A stretch of 48,717 nt of DNA, from positions 1 through 48,717 of IMG/VR virus record IMGVR_UViG_3300020718_000016. One strand, 5' to 3'. Of this stretch, positions 1 to 25,531 are shown one piece after another. The first letter of the stretch is position 1. Every line of letters begins with the position of its first letter. The notes below the pieces were generated by a model. The model saw only the letters and a program-made list of their open reading frames with translations, did not search any database and was not told where the DNA came from. Source of the DNA: a virus (taxonomy: Duplodnaviria; Caudoviricetes). The position numbers and the translations under genes are program-made.

Positions 1-1782
1 ACCACCCAATACACCACCAACGCCAGATTCAACATCGTTTTGAAAACCATTGTATTCTTTAAATGTCAGTTTTTTCTTTTTCTTTTCAGCCAATGGATTT
101 GGTTCTAACTTAGCACCAAGCATTGCTGTACCATTCTGACTTGCGTTACTATATTCTTGTGATTCGCTATATCCTACTTGGCCAAGACCGGCGCCAGCTG
201 CGGCACCTTGACCACCTGCTCTGGTGTCATATTCTTGGCCTACACCAGAAGGTCTACCGACACGACCTGCGCTTAGTGACTTGTCGCCACGCTTCTTTAT
301 TTTTTCTTTGTTGTTGTCTTTTTGGAAGTTTGGCTCTTTGGCTGGCGGGTTGATTTTGAGCGTGGGGACGCTTTCTTCGTAGGCTGAGTGCCAGGCTCCA
401 CCGGTGACTGAGCTACCGACTCCTGTGTTTTTTCTTGGTCCGGTGTCACCTCGGATTTGGTCTCTACCGGTAACGAGGGATCCTGCGTTGTCTGGACGCT
501 GGTCACTTGGTCCTTTTGCTCGGTAGAAAGGGTTGTATCTTCCGATGGTTTTTTGCTGAATAGACTTAGAATTGCCTTTAACATTGTTTTCTCCAAATAA
601 ATTTACATTCCTATTTAACCAATCCGTAGCAGATTCATTGAATATTCTTGAATCTAAAAACGACTTAGTGGACTGGTATATATCACTAATATCTTCTTCT
701 TTGGTATCTAGGTTTCCTGTGTTGTCAAAGGTTACCAAGTTATTATACATCTCATTGAATTGTATAATATTTTCTTGTGCTTTTTGCCACTTATCTTGCC
801 TAACTGATTCAGCCATCATACGAGTTAAATTGGAGTTTCTTTCTTTACTAGTTTCATTATTCGTATGAACAAAAATCATCATGGTATTATAACCAAGTTC
901 TTCTAATTCTTCTTTAATATAGGTAATCTTTTCAATGTCATCTGCTGGTCCGTTAATAATCAATGGACCACGAGCACGAATTGCTTCTCTACGGAAATCG
1001 TTGGTCTTTTCTGACAATTTTTGTTTATCACCCAAATAATCACGAGCTTGAATAAAGTTTAATTCTACCGCTTTTGCTTCGGCAATGGCTTCACGGATAA
1101 CAATATCTTTACCTGAGCCTGGACCACCAGTTACAAAAATTGCTTTGAAATGTCCTCTATAAAGTTCTTCATTTAAACCCATTCCTTTACGAACATCGTG
1201 CATCAATTCTTTTGCGTGAGCATCAGATACATGATGTGGAACGCCTTGACGGAAAGAATGGAAGTCTTTATTTTTTGCGTGTTCTCTCATCTTTGTGCCG
1301 GACATACCTTCAGAACCTTCAGCATCAGGATCTCTATGACCAGCAGACTTAACTTCTATTTTTTTGAAATTATAATGTCCGTGTTTACCTTTTACACCAT
1401 TATATTTGTGTAACAACGTGTGCATTTCTTTAACACGGTCGGAACCAGCAATAACAGTTAATTTATCATGGCCTTTTGCGTGTAACTTGGATGCATGATG
1501 TAGAATAGTTGGGTGGTCTTTATCAGAGGTTTCAAAATGAGTACCCGGTGAATATCTTTTAAGATGTTTGATTTTTTGTTCACCTGATAAAGGATTCTTT
1601 TTAGAATCTTGGGAATGAGATACTACTACAACGTGTTTAGCACCTTGTTTCTCAGCTTCGTGTTTAACTCTATCAATAAGTTTTAAATGACCAGTAGTGG
1701 GAGGATTCATACGACCAAAAGCCATCACAACAGGTTTGTGCGCCTTTTCGGTTTCTTCTACTAAATCTAAAAATGACTTCAT
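1..1782 (-). CDS. Cytidylyltransferase-like (HIGH) nucleotidyltransferase fused to a P-loop kinase domain and a low-complexity tail; 3' end runs off the window
   Basis: Not in the ORF track. Manual translation from ATG 1782 (ATGA overlap with the upstream stop) has no stop down to base 1: MKSFLDLVEE...AFGRMNPPTTGHLKL...AGSDRV...RDPDAEGSEGMSGTKMRE...FKAIFVTGGPGSGKD. Confidence 0.85.
   Translation of the reverse strand, partial: MKSFLDLVEETEKAHKPVVMAFGRMNPPTTGHLKLIDRVKHEAEKQGAKHVVVVSHSQDSKKNPLSGEQKIKHLKRYSPGTHFETSDKDHPTILHHASKLHAKGHDKLTVIAGSDRVKEMHTLLHKYNGVKGKHGHYNFKKIEVKSAGHRDPDAEGSEGMSGTKMREHAKNKDFHSFRQGVPHHVSDAHAKELMHDVRKGMGLNEELYRGHFKAIFVTGGPGSGKDIVIREAIAEAKAVELNFIQARDYLGDKQKLSEKTNDFRREAIRARGPLIINGPADDIEKITYIKEELEELGYNTMMIFVHTNNETSKERNSNLTRMMAESVRQDKWQKAQENIIQFNEMYNNLVTFDNTGNLDTKEEDISDIYQSTKSFLDSRIFNESATDWLNRNVNLFGENNVKGNSKSIQQKTIGRYNPFYRAKGPSDQRPDNAGSLVTGRDQIRGDTGPRKNTGVGSSVTGGAWHSAYEESVPTLKINPPAKEPNFQKDNNKEKIKKRGDKSLSAGRVGRPSGVGQEYDTRAGGQGAAAGAGLGQVGYSESQEYSNASQNGTAMLGAKLEPNPLAEKKKKKLTFKEYNGFQNDVESGVGGVLGG
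297..584 (-). CDS. Putative nested (overprinted) small protein, 95 aa, with a basic C-terminal tail
   Basis: GGAGA RBS 5 nt before ATG 584; MLKAILSLFSKKP...KKASPRSKSTRQPKSQTSKKTTTKKK; different frame from the enclosing 1-1782 ORF. Confidence 0.5.
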   Translation of the reverse strand: MLKAILSLFSKKPSEDTTLSTEQKDQVTSVQTTQDPSLPVETKSEVTPDQEKTQESVAQSPVEPGTQPTKKASPRSKSTRQPKSQTSKKTTTKKK

Positions 1783-3094: not shown

Positions 3095-3979
3095 TTACAG
3101 CTGTTCTTTGATGTAATCTTCTAAACGGACCTGTGGTTCCCAACCAAGAATTGTTCTTGCTTTGGTATTATCTGCCAAGGTGACTCTAGCTTCACCCAAT
3201 CTTGGTGGAATAAAAGTCTGTTTATCAGAAATCATGTTGGCCAGTTCTAATACTGAATGATTTCTGCCGGTTCCAATATTGAATAGTCCGGTTTCTTGGG
3301 ACTGCATGGCCAAAATATTAGCATTAACAGCATCACTTACATAAGTGAAATCTCTGCGTTGTTCACCATCACCAACAATTGTCAAAGATTCTCCAGCACG
3401 ATATTGGCGCAAAAATAGACGAACTACTGGTGCGTATGGACCCTTAGATGGTTCTCTTGGACCATAAATGTTGAAATAACGGAATACAACTGTTGGTAAT
3501 TCAAATAAGTCGGTATACATCTTACAGAGTTTTTCACCAGAAACTTTAGCAACAGAATAAGGATTTAAACAATCATCTGGCATATCTTCATTTAGCGGCG
3601 GAGTATTTGCCAAACCATAACCTGAAGATGTGGAAGAATACATCACTTTCTTAACACCGGCTTCACGAGCACATTGTAATACAACTGCGGTACCCAATAC
3701 GTTGGTACGAACTGCTAGAATTGGATTTTCAATAGTAGGTTGAATACGAGATTCTGCTGCCAAATGGAAAACATAATCTACGCCTTCATATAAAGGTCTA
3801 GTTTTTTCATAATCAGCAACATCTTCTATTACGTAAGTTGCTTTTTTATTATAATAAAATTGGTCATTTGAATTGGCAGATTCATTGTCAATAACAATAA
3901 CATCATGGCCAAGTTCAACTAATTTATCCACTAGATTTGAACCAATAAAACCGGCACCACCAGTAACAATACTTTTCAT
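3095..3979 (-). CDS. NAD-dependent nucleotide-sugar epimerase/dehydratase (extended SDR, GalE-like)
   Basis: MKSIVTGGAGFIG, FHLAA, PYSVAK (YxxxK), FRYFNIYGP, RDFTYVSD; start moved to ATG 3979. Confidence 0.92.
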   Translation of the reverse strand: MKSIVTGGAGFIGSNLVDKLVELGHDVIVIDNESANSNDQFYYNKKATYVIEDVADYEKTRPLYEGVDYVFHLAAESRIQPTIENPILAVRTNVLGTAVVLQCAREAGVKKVMYSSTSSGYGLANTPPLNEDMPDDCLNPYSVAKVSGEKLCKMYTDLFELPTVVFRYFNIYGPREPSKGPYAPVVRLFLRQYRAGESLTIVGDGEQRRDFTYVSDAVNANILAMQSQETGLFNIGTGRNHSVLELANMISDKQTFIPPRLGEARVTLADNTKARTILGWEPQVRLEDYIKEQL

Positions 3980-3983
3980 TTTT

Positions 3984-4766
3984 TTACTCCATCGCTTTTT
4001 TATAAAATATATCTTTTTTATCACCTGTTCTATCCCATTGATGAATAACAGGCACAATCGTTCCATCAAAATTCAATAAATTTTGACTAGCATCAAACTT
4101 CATATTATCGTAACGATTCATCGTTGATATTGGACCTTGTCCCGTATGATATAGTTTGTAACTAGAAAAAACTTGATTGTATATTAGGTATCCATGTGTT
4201 GGTTGGTCTGTTGCATAACACCTTTTCTTAACATAAACATTATGCAACTCTTTAATCATTTCATCCAGATAATTAATAATACCTGCTCGAGTGCCCATTG
4301 TTGTGCCGGCGCAAATAATATAATTGTGGCCAATTTGATTGAATACTTCTTCACCATAAGCACCAGCGTAATTACCTTTTAACCACCAAGTATTACAATC
4401 ACAATTCTTATAGTGGTGCATCTCCAAAAAGAATTCAAGTTCGGTAGTCATTTCATGTGCAAATGGATCCGATTGAAATACCACATCTCTTGTATCGGAT
4501 AAGAAAACTTTTTTCACAGCTGGATACTCTTCCATCACTTTACGATGAAACTGGTGTCTTAAATTACAAATTTGGTCGTGGTCATAATGACCTTCAATTT
4601 TAAAACCTCGAATATTATATTTGTTAAAAAATTGTTGCAATTCATCATTAATATCTAACACAACCATGGCAATGTGGCCGTCATAATACTTGCGTAATGA
4701 TTTTGCAAAAGGTTCTAATTGCTCGGCATTATAACCAATCGAGGTACCTAAAACTAAATTAGACAT
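3984..4766 (-). CDS. GT-A-fold glycosyltransferase-like protein
   Basis: LSDTRDVVFQSDPF, ICAGT, DQ, IHQWDR; paralogous to 7462-8304. Confidence 0.7.
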   Translation of the reverse strand: MSNLVLGTSIGYNAEQLEPFAKSLRKYYDGHIAMVVLDINDELQQFFNKYNIRGFKIEGHYDHDQICNLRHQFHRKVMEEYPAVKKVFLSDTRDVVFQSDPFAHEMTTELEFFLEMHHYKNCDCNTWWLKGNYAGAYGEEVFNQIGHNYIICAGTTMGTRAGIINYLDEMIKELHNVYVKKRCYATDQPTHGYLIYNQVFSSYKLYHTGQGPISTMNRYDNMKFDASQNLLNFDGTIVPVIHQWDRTGDKKDIFYKKAME

Positions 4767-19497: not shown

Positions 19498-19635
19498 TCA
19501 AAGAATGTAGTAATCTTCTTTACCCACACCACAATCTGGACATTCAAAATCTTCAGGTAAATCTTCCCATTTACCTTCTACTTCTTCATTATGGACATGA
19601 CCACAAACTACACAAATATGTTGTTGATTTTCCAT
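19498..19635 (-). CDS. Rubredoxin (45 aa)
   Basis: Manual translation MENQQHICVVCGHVHNEEVEGKWEDLPEDFECPDCGVGKEDYYIL; two CxxCG motifs. Confidence 0.9.
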   Translation of the reverse strand: MENQQHICVVCGHVHNEEVEGKWEDLPEDFECPDCGVGKEDYYIL

Positions 19636-19778
19636 TATAGATTCTCCATATTTTTTGCATATTCAAGAATAGCTTCAGCAAACATAACAGGAAAATCTGC
19701 TCTTCCCCCAGCCATTGTTATACCTTCGGCTCGACCTGTAATCTGTAGATAGATATTGTGGATTACTTCTTTACTCAT
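19635..19778 (-). CDS. Small hypothetical protein (47 aa)
   Basis: TAATG overlaps on both sides; MSKEVIHNIYLQITGRAEG... Confidence 0.6.
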   Translation of the reverse strand: MSKEVIHNIYLQITGRAEGITMAGGRADFPVMFAEAILEYAKNMENL

Positions 19779-20227
19779 TATAGTTTCTCCAATACAGTTT
19801 TATAAGCATTAGCATGACGTTCTTCTACTTTAGCCAAAGCAGCAAATCTTTTTTCTGCTTTAGCGAGAACTGCTTTGAATTGCTCAGCGTGTTCTTTAGA
19901 TTCTTCAATCTGCTCAGTAAATTCTTTACTTGCAAGAGATAGACCTTCACCAAATGCCTGATTTCTAAATTGTGGATACATTGTGGTAAACTCATATGTT
20001 TCACCTTCAATGGCTTTTTCCAAACATTCTTTTGTAGATGGTTTACCGATGAGTAATTCTAGATGACCCCAAGCGTGTAGAATTTCTTGGTCGGCTGTGT
20101 GTTCAAAATGCTTTGCTACTTCTTCAAAGCCTTCTTCACGAGCAATCTTGGCGAAATAACGGTACTTGATATGAGCCATTGATTCGCCAGCCAATGCACT
20201 CTCAAGGTTTTGTAATGTATTAGACAT
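19778..20227 (-). CDS. rbr: Rubrerythrin (ferritin-like di-iron domain only)
   Basis: TLQNLESALAGES, YFAKIAREEG, QEILHA, GETYE, EERH. Confidence 0.92.
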   Translation of the reverse strand: MSNTLQNLESALAGESMAHIKYRYFAKIAREEGFEEVAKHFEHTADQEILHAWGHLELLIGKPSTKECLEKAIEGETYEFTTMYPQFRNQAFGEGLSLASKEFTEQIEESKEHAEQFKAVLAKAEKRFAALAKVEERHANAYKTVLEKL

Positions 20228-20402: not shown

Positions 20403-20477
20403 AAGCTGTGCGGTTTTCTACCCCCTGAGCCACCGAACTTTCTCATTCGGACTTTGCTACGCACACAAGGTCGGACT
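20403..20477 (-). ncRNA. Candidate small structured RNA between tRNA-Tyr and tRNA-Thr
   Basis: GC-rich; TGTGCG/CGCACA closing stem; inner CCGAA/TTCGG hairpin. Confidence 0.35.
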
Positions 20478-20569: not shown

Positions 20570-20645
20570 TGGCTCCAGAGCTTGGGGTCGAACCAAGGAC
20601 ATCAAAATTAACAGTTTTGCGCTCTACCAACTGAGCTACTCCGGA
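20570..20645 (-). tRNA. tRNA-Asn(GTT)
   Basis: CAAAA-CTGTTAA-TTTTG, GGTTCGA, CCA end. Confidence 0.93.
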
Positions 20646-20651
20646 ATATCT

Positions 20652-20847
20652 ATTATTGAGAATACTGTTTTGTGTTTAAGATAATTCAACCGACCCCTTA
20701 CGGGATTATTTCGGTATTATAGGTCTCTCCTGTGTTCGTCTTGCTGTGTCAGCATACAGCGTTTCAGATACCTGAAGATTACTACCAGGATGATGTTCTT
20801 CCCTAACAGTTAGGATTGCTTACTCTTTTGCACACATTCTCAATAAT
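20652..20847 (-). ncRNA. Candidate ~195 nt multibranched ncRNA between tRNA-Gly and tRNA-Asn
   Basis: 12 bp perfect closing stem ATTATTGAGAAT/ATTCTCAATAAT enclosing several hairpins. Confidence 0.6.
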
Positions 20848-20920
20848 GGAGCGGAATATTGGAATTGAACCAATGACGAAAGGTTGGAAACCTTTAGTTT
20901 TACCACTAAACTAATCCCGC
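20847..20920 (-). tRNA. tRNA-Gly(TCC)
   Basis: AAAGG-TTTCCAA-CCTTT, GCGGG acceptor, U73, CCA. Confidence 0.92.
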
Positions 20921-20926
20921 AAAAAC

Positions 20927-20996
20927 TGGAGCGGTGGCTTGGATTTGCACCAAGTGATTAAGTTGGACACCTAATCTGGTTCTATACCCCGACCGC
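20927..20996 (-). ncRNA. Non-canonical tRNA-Gly(TCC)-like RNA (70 nt)
   Basis: GCGGT/ACCGC acceptor with TCCA end, 7 bp anticodon stem, minimal D arm, almost no variable loop. Confidence 0.6.
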
Positions 20997-21005
20997 ATAT
21001 GTAAT

Positions 21006-21034
21006 ACTATAACACAAATTTATTTATTTGTCAA
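21006..21034 (-). promoter_or_regulatory. Sigma70 promoter driving the tRNA array
   Basis: TTGACA-17nt-TATAGT with extended -10 TG, just upstream of the first tRNA-like gene. Confidence 0.8.
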
Positions 21035-23393: not shown

Positions 23394-23801
23394 TTAGTGT
23401 GAGAAATTCTTTTTTCCTATTTGGTATTTTGGAGTCAGTTCCCAATCATCTTTTTCCTTATGGGAAAGTATCTTAATTTGTGATAGGAAGATAGGTGCTG
23501 GTTCTTCAATTTGTTTTAAATTTACCACTTTAACTAAACCCCAATCTTGGAGTAATTTAGCAATGGCATTCCTACGAGATAAATCATTCTCGGAAATGTC
23601 CGTTGGTTTACCATCTAAAGCAAATAATTCCTTGAAGTGGACCACATAATATTTACCTTGCTTATGTAATATATGGCAAGATTGATACAATATTCTGTCT
23701 TTTTTGGAAGCTACACCGATACGAGTAAGAGTTTCACGCACTTTGAGAAAATCATCTTTTTCATTCAATGTAACTTCAACTAAATCGATAATTGAAATCA
23801 T
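23394..23801 (-). CDS. regA: Translational repressor RegA
   Basis: DDFLKVRETLTRIG, QSCHILHKQGKYYVVHFKEL. Confidence 0.96.
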   Translation of the reverse strand: MISIIDLVEVTLNEKDDFLKVRETLTRIGVASKKDRILYQSCHILHKQGKYYVVHFKELFALDGKPTDISENDLSRRNAIAKLLQDWGLVKVVNLKQIEEPAPIFLSQIKILSHKEKDDWELTPKYQIGKKNFSH

Positions 23802-24394
23802 GACTTGTTCATTCCGTTGTTCTTATTATTATGGATATCAATACTATATTTAGTTTTAATGGTTTCCATATATTCCAAAACAGATTTAACATCTTCAATC
23901 CCAGCATCAGATTTTATTCTATTAGCTTTGAATGATATTACTTCAATGTTTCCTTTGACATATCCCAATTCAGGAATAATTCTATCCAGAGATGGTGAAA
24001 AATCTCCAGGTCCACGACCAGTTGTTGCAATTTCAAATGGAGCCTTCAATACAGGACAAACCTTAGGAATAACAATATCCGATAATTCTATATTAAAATC
24101 TATATTTTTTTGTTGCGCTCTCTGTTTGGCTCTTGACCACATAAGATATATGTAATTTTTTCCTAGTTTTCTATATTCTTCTCTACCTTTTAATTTGTTC
24201 TTTTCTTTATTTTTTTCTCTTGATTTTTTAGCATAAACGTTTCCTGATTTTTTTTGATTTTCAGATAAACACTCAGCACACCAACCATTACTGGTGTATC
24301 TTTTGGACAGGTGTCCGTGTTTACAAGGTTTTTCGGTAAAATAAAAAAGTGATTGAATTTTTTTTGCTTCTTTAGCTGTTTTAGGATAGTTCAT
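23798..24394 (-). CDS. Free-standing HNH-type homing endonuclease
   Basis: CKHGH..RY..CAEC N-domain; CPVL, SPSLDRIIPELGYVKGNIEVISFKANRIK; TATAAATA at 24424-24431. Confidence 0.8.
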   Translation of the reverse strand: MNYPKTAKEAKKIQSLFYFTEKPCKHGHLSKRYTSNGWCAECLSENQKKSGNVYAKKSREKNKEKNKLKGREEYRKLGKNYIYLMWSRAKQRAQQKNIDFNIELSDIVIPKVCPVLKAPFEIATTGRGPGDFSPSLDRIIPELGYVKGNIEVISFKANRIKSDAGIEDVKSVLEYMETIKTKYSIDIHNNKNNGMNKS

Positions 24395-24901: not shown

Positions 24902-25531
24902 ATGAAAAATATACCATACACATACCTTATATATTGTAAGACAACAAGACAATATTATTATGGTGTAAGATACTCAAAAAATTGTAATCCAAACGACCTA
25001 TGGAAATCTTATTTTACCTCATCTAATTATGTTAGAGAATTAATAAACAAATATGGAAAAAATGATTTTCTTTTTGAAATAAGAAGAACTTTTACAAATT
25101 CATATAAAGCAAGATGTTGGGAACAAAAAGTTTTAACTAAACTAAATGCATCTAAGCGAAATGATTTTATAAACAAAAATAATTCAGGTTTTCCCAGTGG
25201 TCAAAATAGAATATGGATTACCAACGGTAAACAAAACAAGTTTATTGATATTTTGGAAATCGATAATTATACTGATTGGCAAAAAGGAAGAACATTTTCG
25301 AAATCAATAAAGCAAAAAATATCAATAACCAGAAAGTCACAAAATTTAATAAACATACCAAATCATAGCAAAGAACAAAAATTAAAATGGTCAGAAATGC
25401 GTAAGGGTAAAATAAATGGAAGAGATACTTCTAAACCGGTAATAGTTAATAATAAAAAATATTCATCAATAAAACAAGCTATGTTAGAAACAGGACTATC
25501 CAGATATATTATAAAACAATCTAATCCTTAA
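24902..25531 (+). CDS. Free-standing GIY-YIG (Seg-like) homing endonuclease
   Basis: YTYLI...YYYGVR, YFTSS, WEQKVL, IWITNG NUMOD-like motif; opposite strand; ACTAAATA upstream. Confidence 0.85.
   Translation: MKNIPYTYLIYCKTTRQYYYGVRYSKNCNPNDLWKSYFTSSNYVRELINKYGKNDFLFEIRRTFTNSYKARCWEQKVLTKLNASKRNDFINKNNSGFPSGQNRIWITNGKQNKFIDILEIDNYTDWQKGRTFSKSIKQKISITRKSQNLINIPNHSKEQKLKWSEMRKGKINGRDTSKPVIVNNKKYSSIKQAMLETGLSRYIIKQSNP

Follow-up and report, generated by a model that had tools for sequence, protein, structure and literature searches.

The spacer between a tRNA-Gly and a tRNA-Asn gene of a T4-like myophage carries a member of a real RNA family that is apparently undescribed, is uncatalogued in Rfam and has a knotted core of unusual density. 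The family comprises 96 distinct sequences of 165–236 nt in phage and metagenome contigs, which fall into 53 clusters at 90% identity (identity between clusters at least 40%, median 55%). Among the 53 representatives, 38 positions are at least 97% conserved; part of this positional invariance was fixed by the search patterns, and each end is also conserved in the matches found via the other end. The window, by which we mean the whole 48,717-nucleotide stretch of DNA analyzed, is a 29%-complete phage record with genes for DNA polymerase, clamp, clamp loader, capsid, portal and sheath. The nearest named capsid proteins (~65% identical) are those of Methylophilales phage Melnitz, and protein searches indicated no host. 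A first-pass annotation had proposed a structured non-coding RNA in the tRNA operon, assignable to no family and with no convincing ORF. This proposal is supported by strong compensating change among homologues, described below, and by Rfam, which returned no family for the window at the gathering score or at E ≤ 10 and no match for the loci of 34 relatives; no ORF of 60 aa or more lies on the transcribed strand.

The first collection, from loci around relatives of two neighboring proteins, gave 32 matches in 154 partly redundant loci and 14 distinct sequences. Separate patterns for the 5′ and 3′ cores chose almost identical sets of viral contigs (51 and 56 loci), which implies that the two ends form one unit, and a metagenome scan (86 loci) brought in a second subfamily. 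From 259 locus matches we obtained 78 distinct full-length sequences, having put aside 17 (8 cut by contig ends and 9 chance matches). The family model R1 then recovered a class that the patterns had missed, and two further scans yielded 29 members in 36 loci. Matches in L270, L284, L306 and L357 were due to chance, as were those in 6 of the 31 loci from one later scan.

Searches elsewhere returned little. A blastn search with the window copy and that of L117 found no real match among 50,697 annotated phage records, and the best R1 score in the related phages Melnitz, DLP6, Mosig, P-SSM2 and S-SRM01, 16.6 bits, came from a short match that we rejected. One exact-pattern scan across 185,579 genomes of bacteria and archaea, a search that diverged cellular relatives could escape since no model was used, gave 6 matches, all without the 3′ half and rejected as chance. 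We found no description of the family in the literature. A fragment may be listed in the alignments of PMC10690425; in the parts searched of its supplement (10,006 viral candidates of 30–151 nt), none of four family motifs was found.

Table 1. Positions in the window of the RNA element, its parts and its immediate neighbors
Feature	Position	Strand	Remarks
Sigma-70-type promoter-like site heading the tRNA operon	21006..21034	-	11/12 consensus, extended -10; consensus match only
tRNA-Gly(UCC), upstream neighbor	20847..20920	-	last A of its CCA starts P1
ncRNA gene (whole element)	20652..20847	-	196 nt; 159 bits on R1 (by construction)
P1 closing stalk, 5′ strand	20836..20847	-	starts at last A of the tRNA-Gly CCA; 10/13 pairs with two-sided change, 98% paired
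P2, 5′ strand	20833..20835	-	3 bp with 20674-20672; 68/68 paired; first pair G-C, G-U or A-U
Pseudoknot 3	20829..20831	-	G20831 with C20792, A20829 with U20793, middle base bulged
Pseudoknot 2, 5′ strand in A-rich joiner	20817..20820	-	pairs with domain-A loop bases 20754-20751
P3 hairpin	20800..20815	-	4 bp (20815-20812 with 20803-20800); 8-nt loop bears pseudoknot 1
Pseudoknot 1, 5′ strand	20805..20810	-	6 bp with 20669-20664; 99.8% paired
Domain A	20728..20790	-	P4, then three-way junction with two hairpins; second loop bears pseudoknot 2
Domain B	20680..20727	-	P5 plus variable arm, 16 to 81 nt in alignment
Unpaired joiner, P5 to P2	20676..20679	-	98-100% conserved, partly fixed by search patterns
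Pseudoknot 1, 3′ strand	20664..20669	-	directly before P1 3′ strand
P1 closing stalk, 3′ strand	20652..20663	-	pairs with 20836..20847
tRNA-Asn(GUU), downstream neighbor	20570..20645	-	begins 6 nt past the stalk

The knotted core and its variable domains

Compensating mutations support the knotted fold that we predict. In alignment A1, which contains 68 sequences of the initial 78 (the other 10, near-duplicates, were omitted), 94.8% of cells are paired and 30 of 44 pairs show two-sided change, compared with 83% and 20.9 ± 1.6 pairs in shuffles, which ignore relatedness, and with 40–56% of cells when the partners are slid. The core runs from P1 (13 bp) and P2 (3 bp) through an A-rich joiner to the P3 hairpin, then to domain A on P4 and domain B on P5, and returns by a joiner to P2. 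The window copy also folds more stably than expected by chance (z = −3.2, with 1 of 200 shuffles as good), but the opposite strand folds equally well (z = −3.1), so that folding energy alone cannot give the strand.

All three pseudoknots, which were absent from the first-pass drawing, vary among relatives. The variable pair of pseudoknot 1 is U-A in 55 sequences, C-G in 9 and U-G in 4, with 6 and 10 changes on the tree, and the pair that closes the P3 loop around it (U-A 37, C-G 29, U-G 2) changes 12–13 times. Pseudoknot 3 emerged from an unbiased mutual-information ranking without a prior; it is G-C in 53, A-U in 11 and U-A in 1 of 68 sequences, with 3–4 changes. For pseudoknot 2, the central two pairs form in 68 of 68 sequences of A1, where the covariation amounts to one flip in one clade; later classes add a GGG/CCC form as well as 5- and 8-bp forms, and own partners score 3.70 versus 3.57 ± 0.03 for swapped partners (2 of 2000). 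A further helix considered between conserved words, UAAG/CUUA, was rejected: two classes do not preserve it, and the C in it is already accounted for by covariation within P5.

Comparison with relatives also revises part of the secondary structure drawn in the first pass. The perfect 12-bp stem closing the whole Gly–Asn spacer is there, as are all the complementary words that had been named, and the CCTG/CAGG, GCTGT/ACAGC and ACCGA/TCGGT helices hold. Three of the four GTGT/ACAC pairs do so too, the fourth forming in only 24 of 68 sequences. The CCTAA/TTAGG helix had been shifted out of register by one base (its second pair forms in 31 of 68 sequences, versus 66–68 of 68 in the family register), and what it left as a loop is actually the 8-nt loop that forms a pseudoknot. 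The second ATAAT/ATTAT pair is broken in 8 of 10 relatives with the same domain, which instead pair 20727-20723 with 20684-20680. The base of P5 is weakened in the window copy, so the local register may slide to the earlier drawing there. Nor is the proposed GNRA cap conserved: in roughly half of the class (5 versus 6), GTAA gives way to TTAC, the reverse complement. The domain-B tip hairpin (window 20692-20701, minus strand) occurs in both orientations among relatives, which suggests inversion of a small palindrome.

The architecture of domain A is predicted to be alike in nearly all classes when the pseudoknot-2 loop is held open; in the alignment, P4 is 94% paired. Types of the two domains reassort: one A type occurs with three B types, and a single B type is combined with four named A types. 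We considered paired T-loops that would read the tRNA elbow and rejected them: the UGAAA word is confined to a subset of the classes, and pseudoknot 2 has the other loop as its partner.

The loops raise the question of whether the RNA assembles with itself, as an RNA-only oligomer like a small GOLLD, ROOL or OLE. Of 36 distinct domain-B loops, 17 contain a palindrome of at least 4 nt, where shuffles give 10.1 ± 2.2 (a post hoc test on related loops), and 13 of 45 first domain-A loops do so, where shuffles give 8.1 ± 2.3 (likewise post hoc); OLE and GOLLD are described as switching between such palindromes (PMC12286853), and pseudoknot 2 or 3 could be intermolecular. However, a domain-B loop of this kind is found in only 50 of the 96 sequences and is missing from the window copy, and close variants break the palindrome. 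We consider an oligomer held together by such loops rather improbable.

Setting in tRNA operons and patchy distribution

On the minus strand of the window, the sigma-70-type site is followed by an atypical tRNA-like gene, tRNA-Gly, the RNA element, and then tRNA-Asn, -Tyr and -Thr. The promoter-like site was the best of 4 found in the scan, where 5.5 were expected, and no terminator-like site was found on this strand. Several neighbors deserve mention in their own right. The tRNA-Gly-like gene (20927-20996, minus strand), missed by ARAGORN and Rfam, has a glycine-type acceptor stem with CCA, a long covarying anticodon arm and non-canonical D and T loops; 32 variants come from loci of related phages, where the gene followed the promoter immediately in the cases inspected, and it is possibly a non-proteinogenic tRNA or a decoy. 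Between tRNA-Tyr and tRNA-Thr lies a weakly folded 75-nt insert (20403-20477, minus strand) that the window shares with L003 and L082 alone and that is absent in L087. Also in the tRNA region, a rubrerythrin-like gene and then a short rubredoxin-like ORF (19500-20227, minus strand) have 579 relatives in viral contigs. In nine distinct loci (L107, at about 3860-4024 on the plus strand, L116, L117, L160, L193, L195, L258, L279 and L340), a second conserved RNA of ~165 nt lies directly upstream of the element. It had no Rfam match in the loci scanned and ends in a strong hairpin, which occurs on its own in L183 and L319.

Company with tRNA genes is a general property of the family: with a relaxed ARAGORN threshold, 73 of 78 members have a same-strand tRNA within 300 nt. 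A tRNA, of seven types altogether, ends within 12 nt upstream in 34 of the 78, and one starts within 30 nt downstream in 45. The stalk is lengthened into its own flanks by a mean of 2.4 extra pairs, versus 0.84 ± 0.13 with swapped flanks (0 of 5000), and it pairs the upstream CCA through UGG in 15 of 21 abutting contexts versus 0 of 52 others. We read this adaptation as selection for a long closed stalk. It would also suit a cis-acting regulator or a mere processing spacer, but beyond the tRNAs no fixed gene follows the element, its strand bears no terminator-like site, and a spacer needs no three conserved pseudoknots; we judge that explanation unlikely.

The element comes and goes between close relatives. 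L082 and L087, whose flanking DNA is 82–98% identical to that of the window, lack it, and their Gly and Asn genes are joined by a 6-nt spacer. It occurs once each in 16 of 50 viral records, including 2 of 4 complete genomes; 15 of these records were picked because they are carriers, and only 48 candidates were scored in the largest. The carriers' capsid proteins are 58–93% identical to that of the window. No ORF cluster was found to track the RNA locally, and no phage partner protein tracked it across 14 records (10 of them fragments; ORFs of at least 40 aa). Fourteen clusters are common to both complete carriers and absent from every non-carrier; the window and the two distant carriers, each of them a fragment, have none of these.

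Presence and absence at one site in close relatives, beside many tRNAs and with endonuclease genes 3–4 kb away, might suggest a selfish insert that a homing endonuclease moves or that excises itself. The empty site, however, has a different 6-nt spacer with neither a precise junction nor a duplication, there is one copy per genome, and no ORF cluster keeps company with the RNA. L087 aligns through the endonuclease region 23798-24394 yet is without the RNA, whereas L007 has the RNA and not that gene. Exchange via flanking tRNA homology explains the pattern, and we regard selfish mobility as very unlikely; taken with cis regulation, both are unlikely. The endonuclease genes (23798-24394, minus strand, and 24902-25531, plus strand) sit among clamp-loader and regA genes, and the presence or absence of each in close relatives is independent of the RNA element.

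Assembled contigs from 7 RNA runs of 22 listed, which had no DNA control and of which X2 and X19 belong to one study, give a hint of a discrete transcript. The contigs come from relatives (~86% identical) and cannot show ends, strand or level. In the lake-water run X2, a relative is covered between 20842 and ~3 nt past 20656 by a contig 208 nt long with a depth of 380, and the contigs reaching into the flanks have depths of 26 and 4. X19 yielded five contigs of depth 24–503, three of which stop only a few bases from the 5′ end, while the deepest runs 23 nt upstream. The one contig in X1 (depth 13) runs 173 nt upstream through the 5′ end, and X3 shows a depth of just 2–4. No contig covered the element in X13, X16 and X18, which is no evidence of absence.

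What the RNA might do

The reading that we prefer, with a probability of roughly 45%, is that the RNA may act in trans, binding a host factor as a decoy or modulator. That it is co-transcribed with the tRNAs, released by host nucleases and stabilized by its stalk is, for the three jointly, quite probable. Transcription together with the phage tRNAs would begin at the promoter (21034-21006). RNase P, whose action on a downstream tRNA is established, would free the 3′ side by its cut there, a cut or trimming at the upstream CCA would free the 5′ side, and the 12–22-bp stalk would protect both ends. The invariant A-rich joiners at the meeting point of the three pseudoknots would form the binding surface, and the target might be a host protein or complex involved in translation, RNA decay or antiphage defense. 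We arrive at the host-factor step by exclusion, there being no phage partner and no fixed downstream gene, and by analogy with the accessory genes of phage tRNA regions, which are documented as counter-defense sites (10.1101/2023.03.15.532788; PMC13096335). Binding is preferred because what is conserved is a tertiary core and not a guide for pairing.

The same anatomy would, however, fit a ribozyme or a small-molecule pocket equally well. We keep as a minor possibility that the RNA is functional without protein and represents a new class, either a ribozyme of RNase P-like order acting on tRNA precursors or an RNA sponge for a host immune or stress signal. Pseudoknots together with 97%-conserved bases are described as a mark of biochemically demanding RNAs (PMC5737381), and the conserved tertiary contacts here are as dense as in ribozymes and riboswitch aptamers, which makes the core a candidate new RNA fold. 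If the RNA does bind a defense factor or signal, or is catalytic, it would be a candidate new kind of phage RNA tool.

A new class of ribozyme that cuts itself or tRNA precursors would account for the three pseudoknots, the 38 near-invariant positions and the many unpaired purines, and for an RNA that is always among tRNA genes with no partner protein seen. Its closing stem, short second stem, pseudoknot strand before the closing strand and two exchangeable domains resemble bacterial RNase P RNA, in which the strand order around the long-range pseudoknot is similar. The active-site pseudoknot helix of RNase P RNA, though, holds a bulged U, whereas pseudoknot 1 consists of 6 contiguous pairs from a hairpin loop with no bulge, and the element is much shorter. 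RF00010 gave 0 candidates for the element while detecting the controls in 11 of 14 genomes, and the other RNase P models had no match. Nor did any Rfam model of self-cleaving ribozymes or group I introns match at E ≤ 5–10, theta ribozymes being covered insofar as Rfam 15 models them. Sister phages process the same tRNAs without the element, and the contigs show no joint suggestive of splicing or a circle. A ribozyme is, on balance, doubtful.

The core is also pocket-like, its conserved joiners closed by three pseudoknots, and with its patchy presence this might suit an aptamer or sponge for a small molecule, for example a nucleotide signal of host immunity or stress. No regulated gene follows the element, so small-molecule binding would have to act in trans. 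Rfam gave no riboswitch family, there is no consistent downstream gene and no terminator-like expression platform, the neighbors give no clue to a ligand, and a literature search found no RNA sponge of this kind. The chance of such a sponge seems small to us.

Comparison with known RNA families

Among known families, manA (RF01745) shares with the element a length of about 195 nt, a multibranched form and a home in T4-like aquatic phages. In Pelagibacter phage Mosig (L413), a manA RNA (64 bits, 1501-1708, minus strand) lies directly upstream of a rubrerythrin gene, and rubrerythrin also follows the operon in the window. True manA RNAs, however, have another core and stem order, and R1 does not score them; conversely, the best RF01745 score in the window is 6.7 bits, outside the element, against a required 55.2 (controls: P-SSM2, 182 bits, and Mosig, 64 bits).

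The raiA motif, described as 163–253 nt long with a closing stem, two pseudoknots in a compact core and optional peripheral stems (PMC12968392), resembles the element in size and compactness. It differs in that both of its pseudoknot partners are placed in the P5–P6 linker (PMC12968392), whereas pseudoknot 1 of our element closes just before the 3′ strand of P1. The raiA RNAs are moreover bacterial rather than residents of phage tRNA operons, and the element has no Rfam match.

The first-pass annotation had named GOLLD, ROOL and T4 rnaC and rnaD as precedents. The setting is indeed common to them, but the comparisons place the element in none of these families. GOLLD and ROOL are characterized as phage-borne RNAs near tRNA islands with several pseudoknots and without a known protein partner or function (PMC12286853; PMC5737381). 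The element resembles them in its phage tRNA setting and multiple pseudoknots. At 165–236 nt it is a third to a quarter the size of those RNAs (about 580–800 nt or more), it has no Rfam match, and self-pairing loops are not universal in the family.

Closest in context are T4 rnaC (species 1, 139 nt) and rnaD (species 2, 119 nt), which are likewise non-tRNA RNA genes in the tRNA cluster of a T4-like phage; we know of no role for either. The element is longer, with a 12–13-bp closing stalk and three pseudoknots, and lacks a T-arm-like 3′ end such as rnaC has, and R1 found no match in the T4 locus (L206) at E ≤ 5. Since species 1 and 2, it has been an open question why T4-like phages retain RNAs other than tRNAs amid their tRNA genes. 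The present family offers a small and well-supported test case for it, with a natural minimal form of 165 nt (L295), natural compensatory variants of the pseudoknots, and sister phages with and without the RNA.
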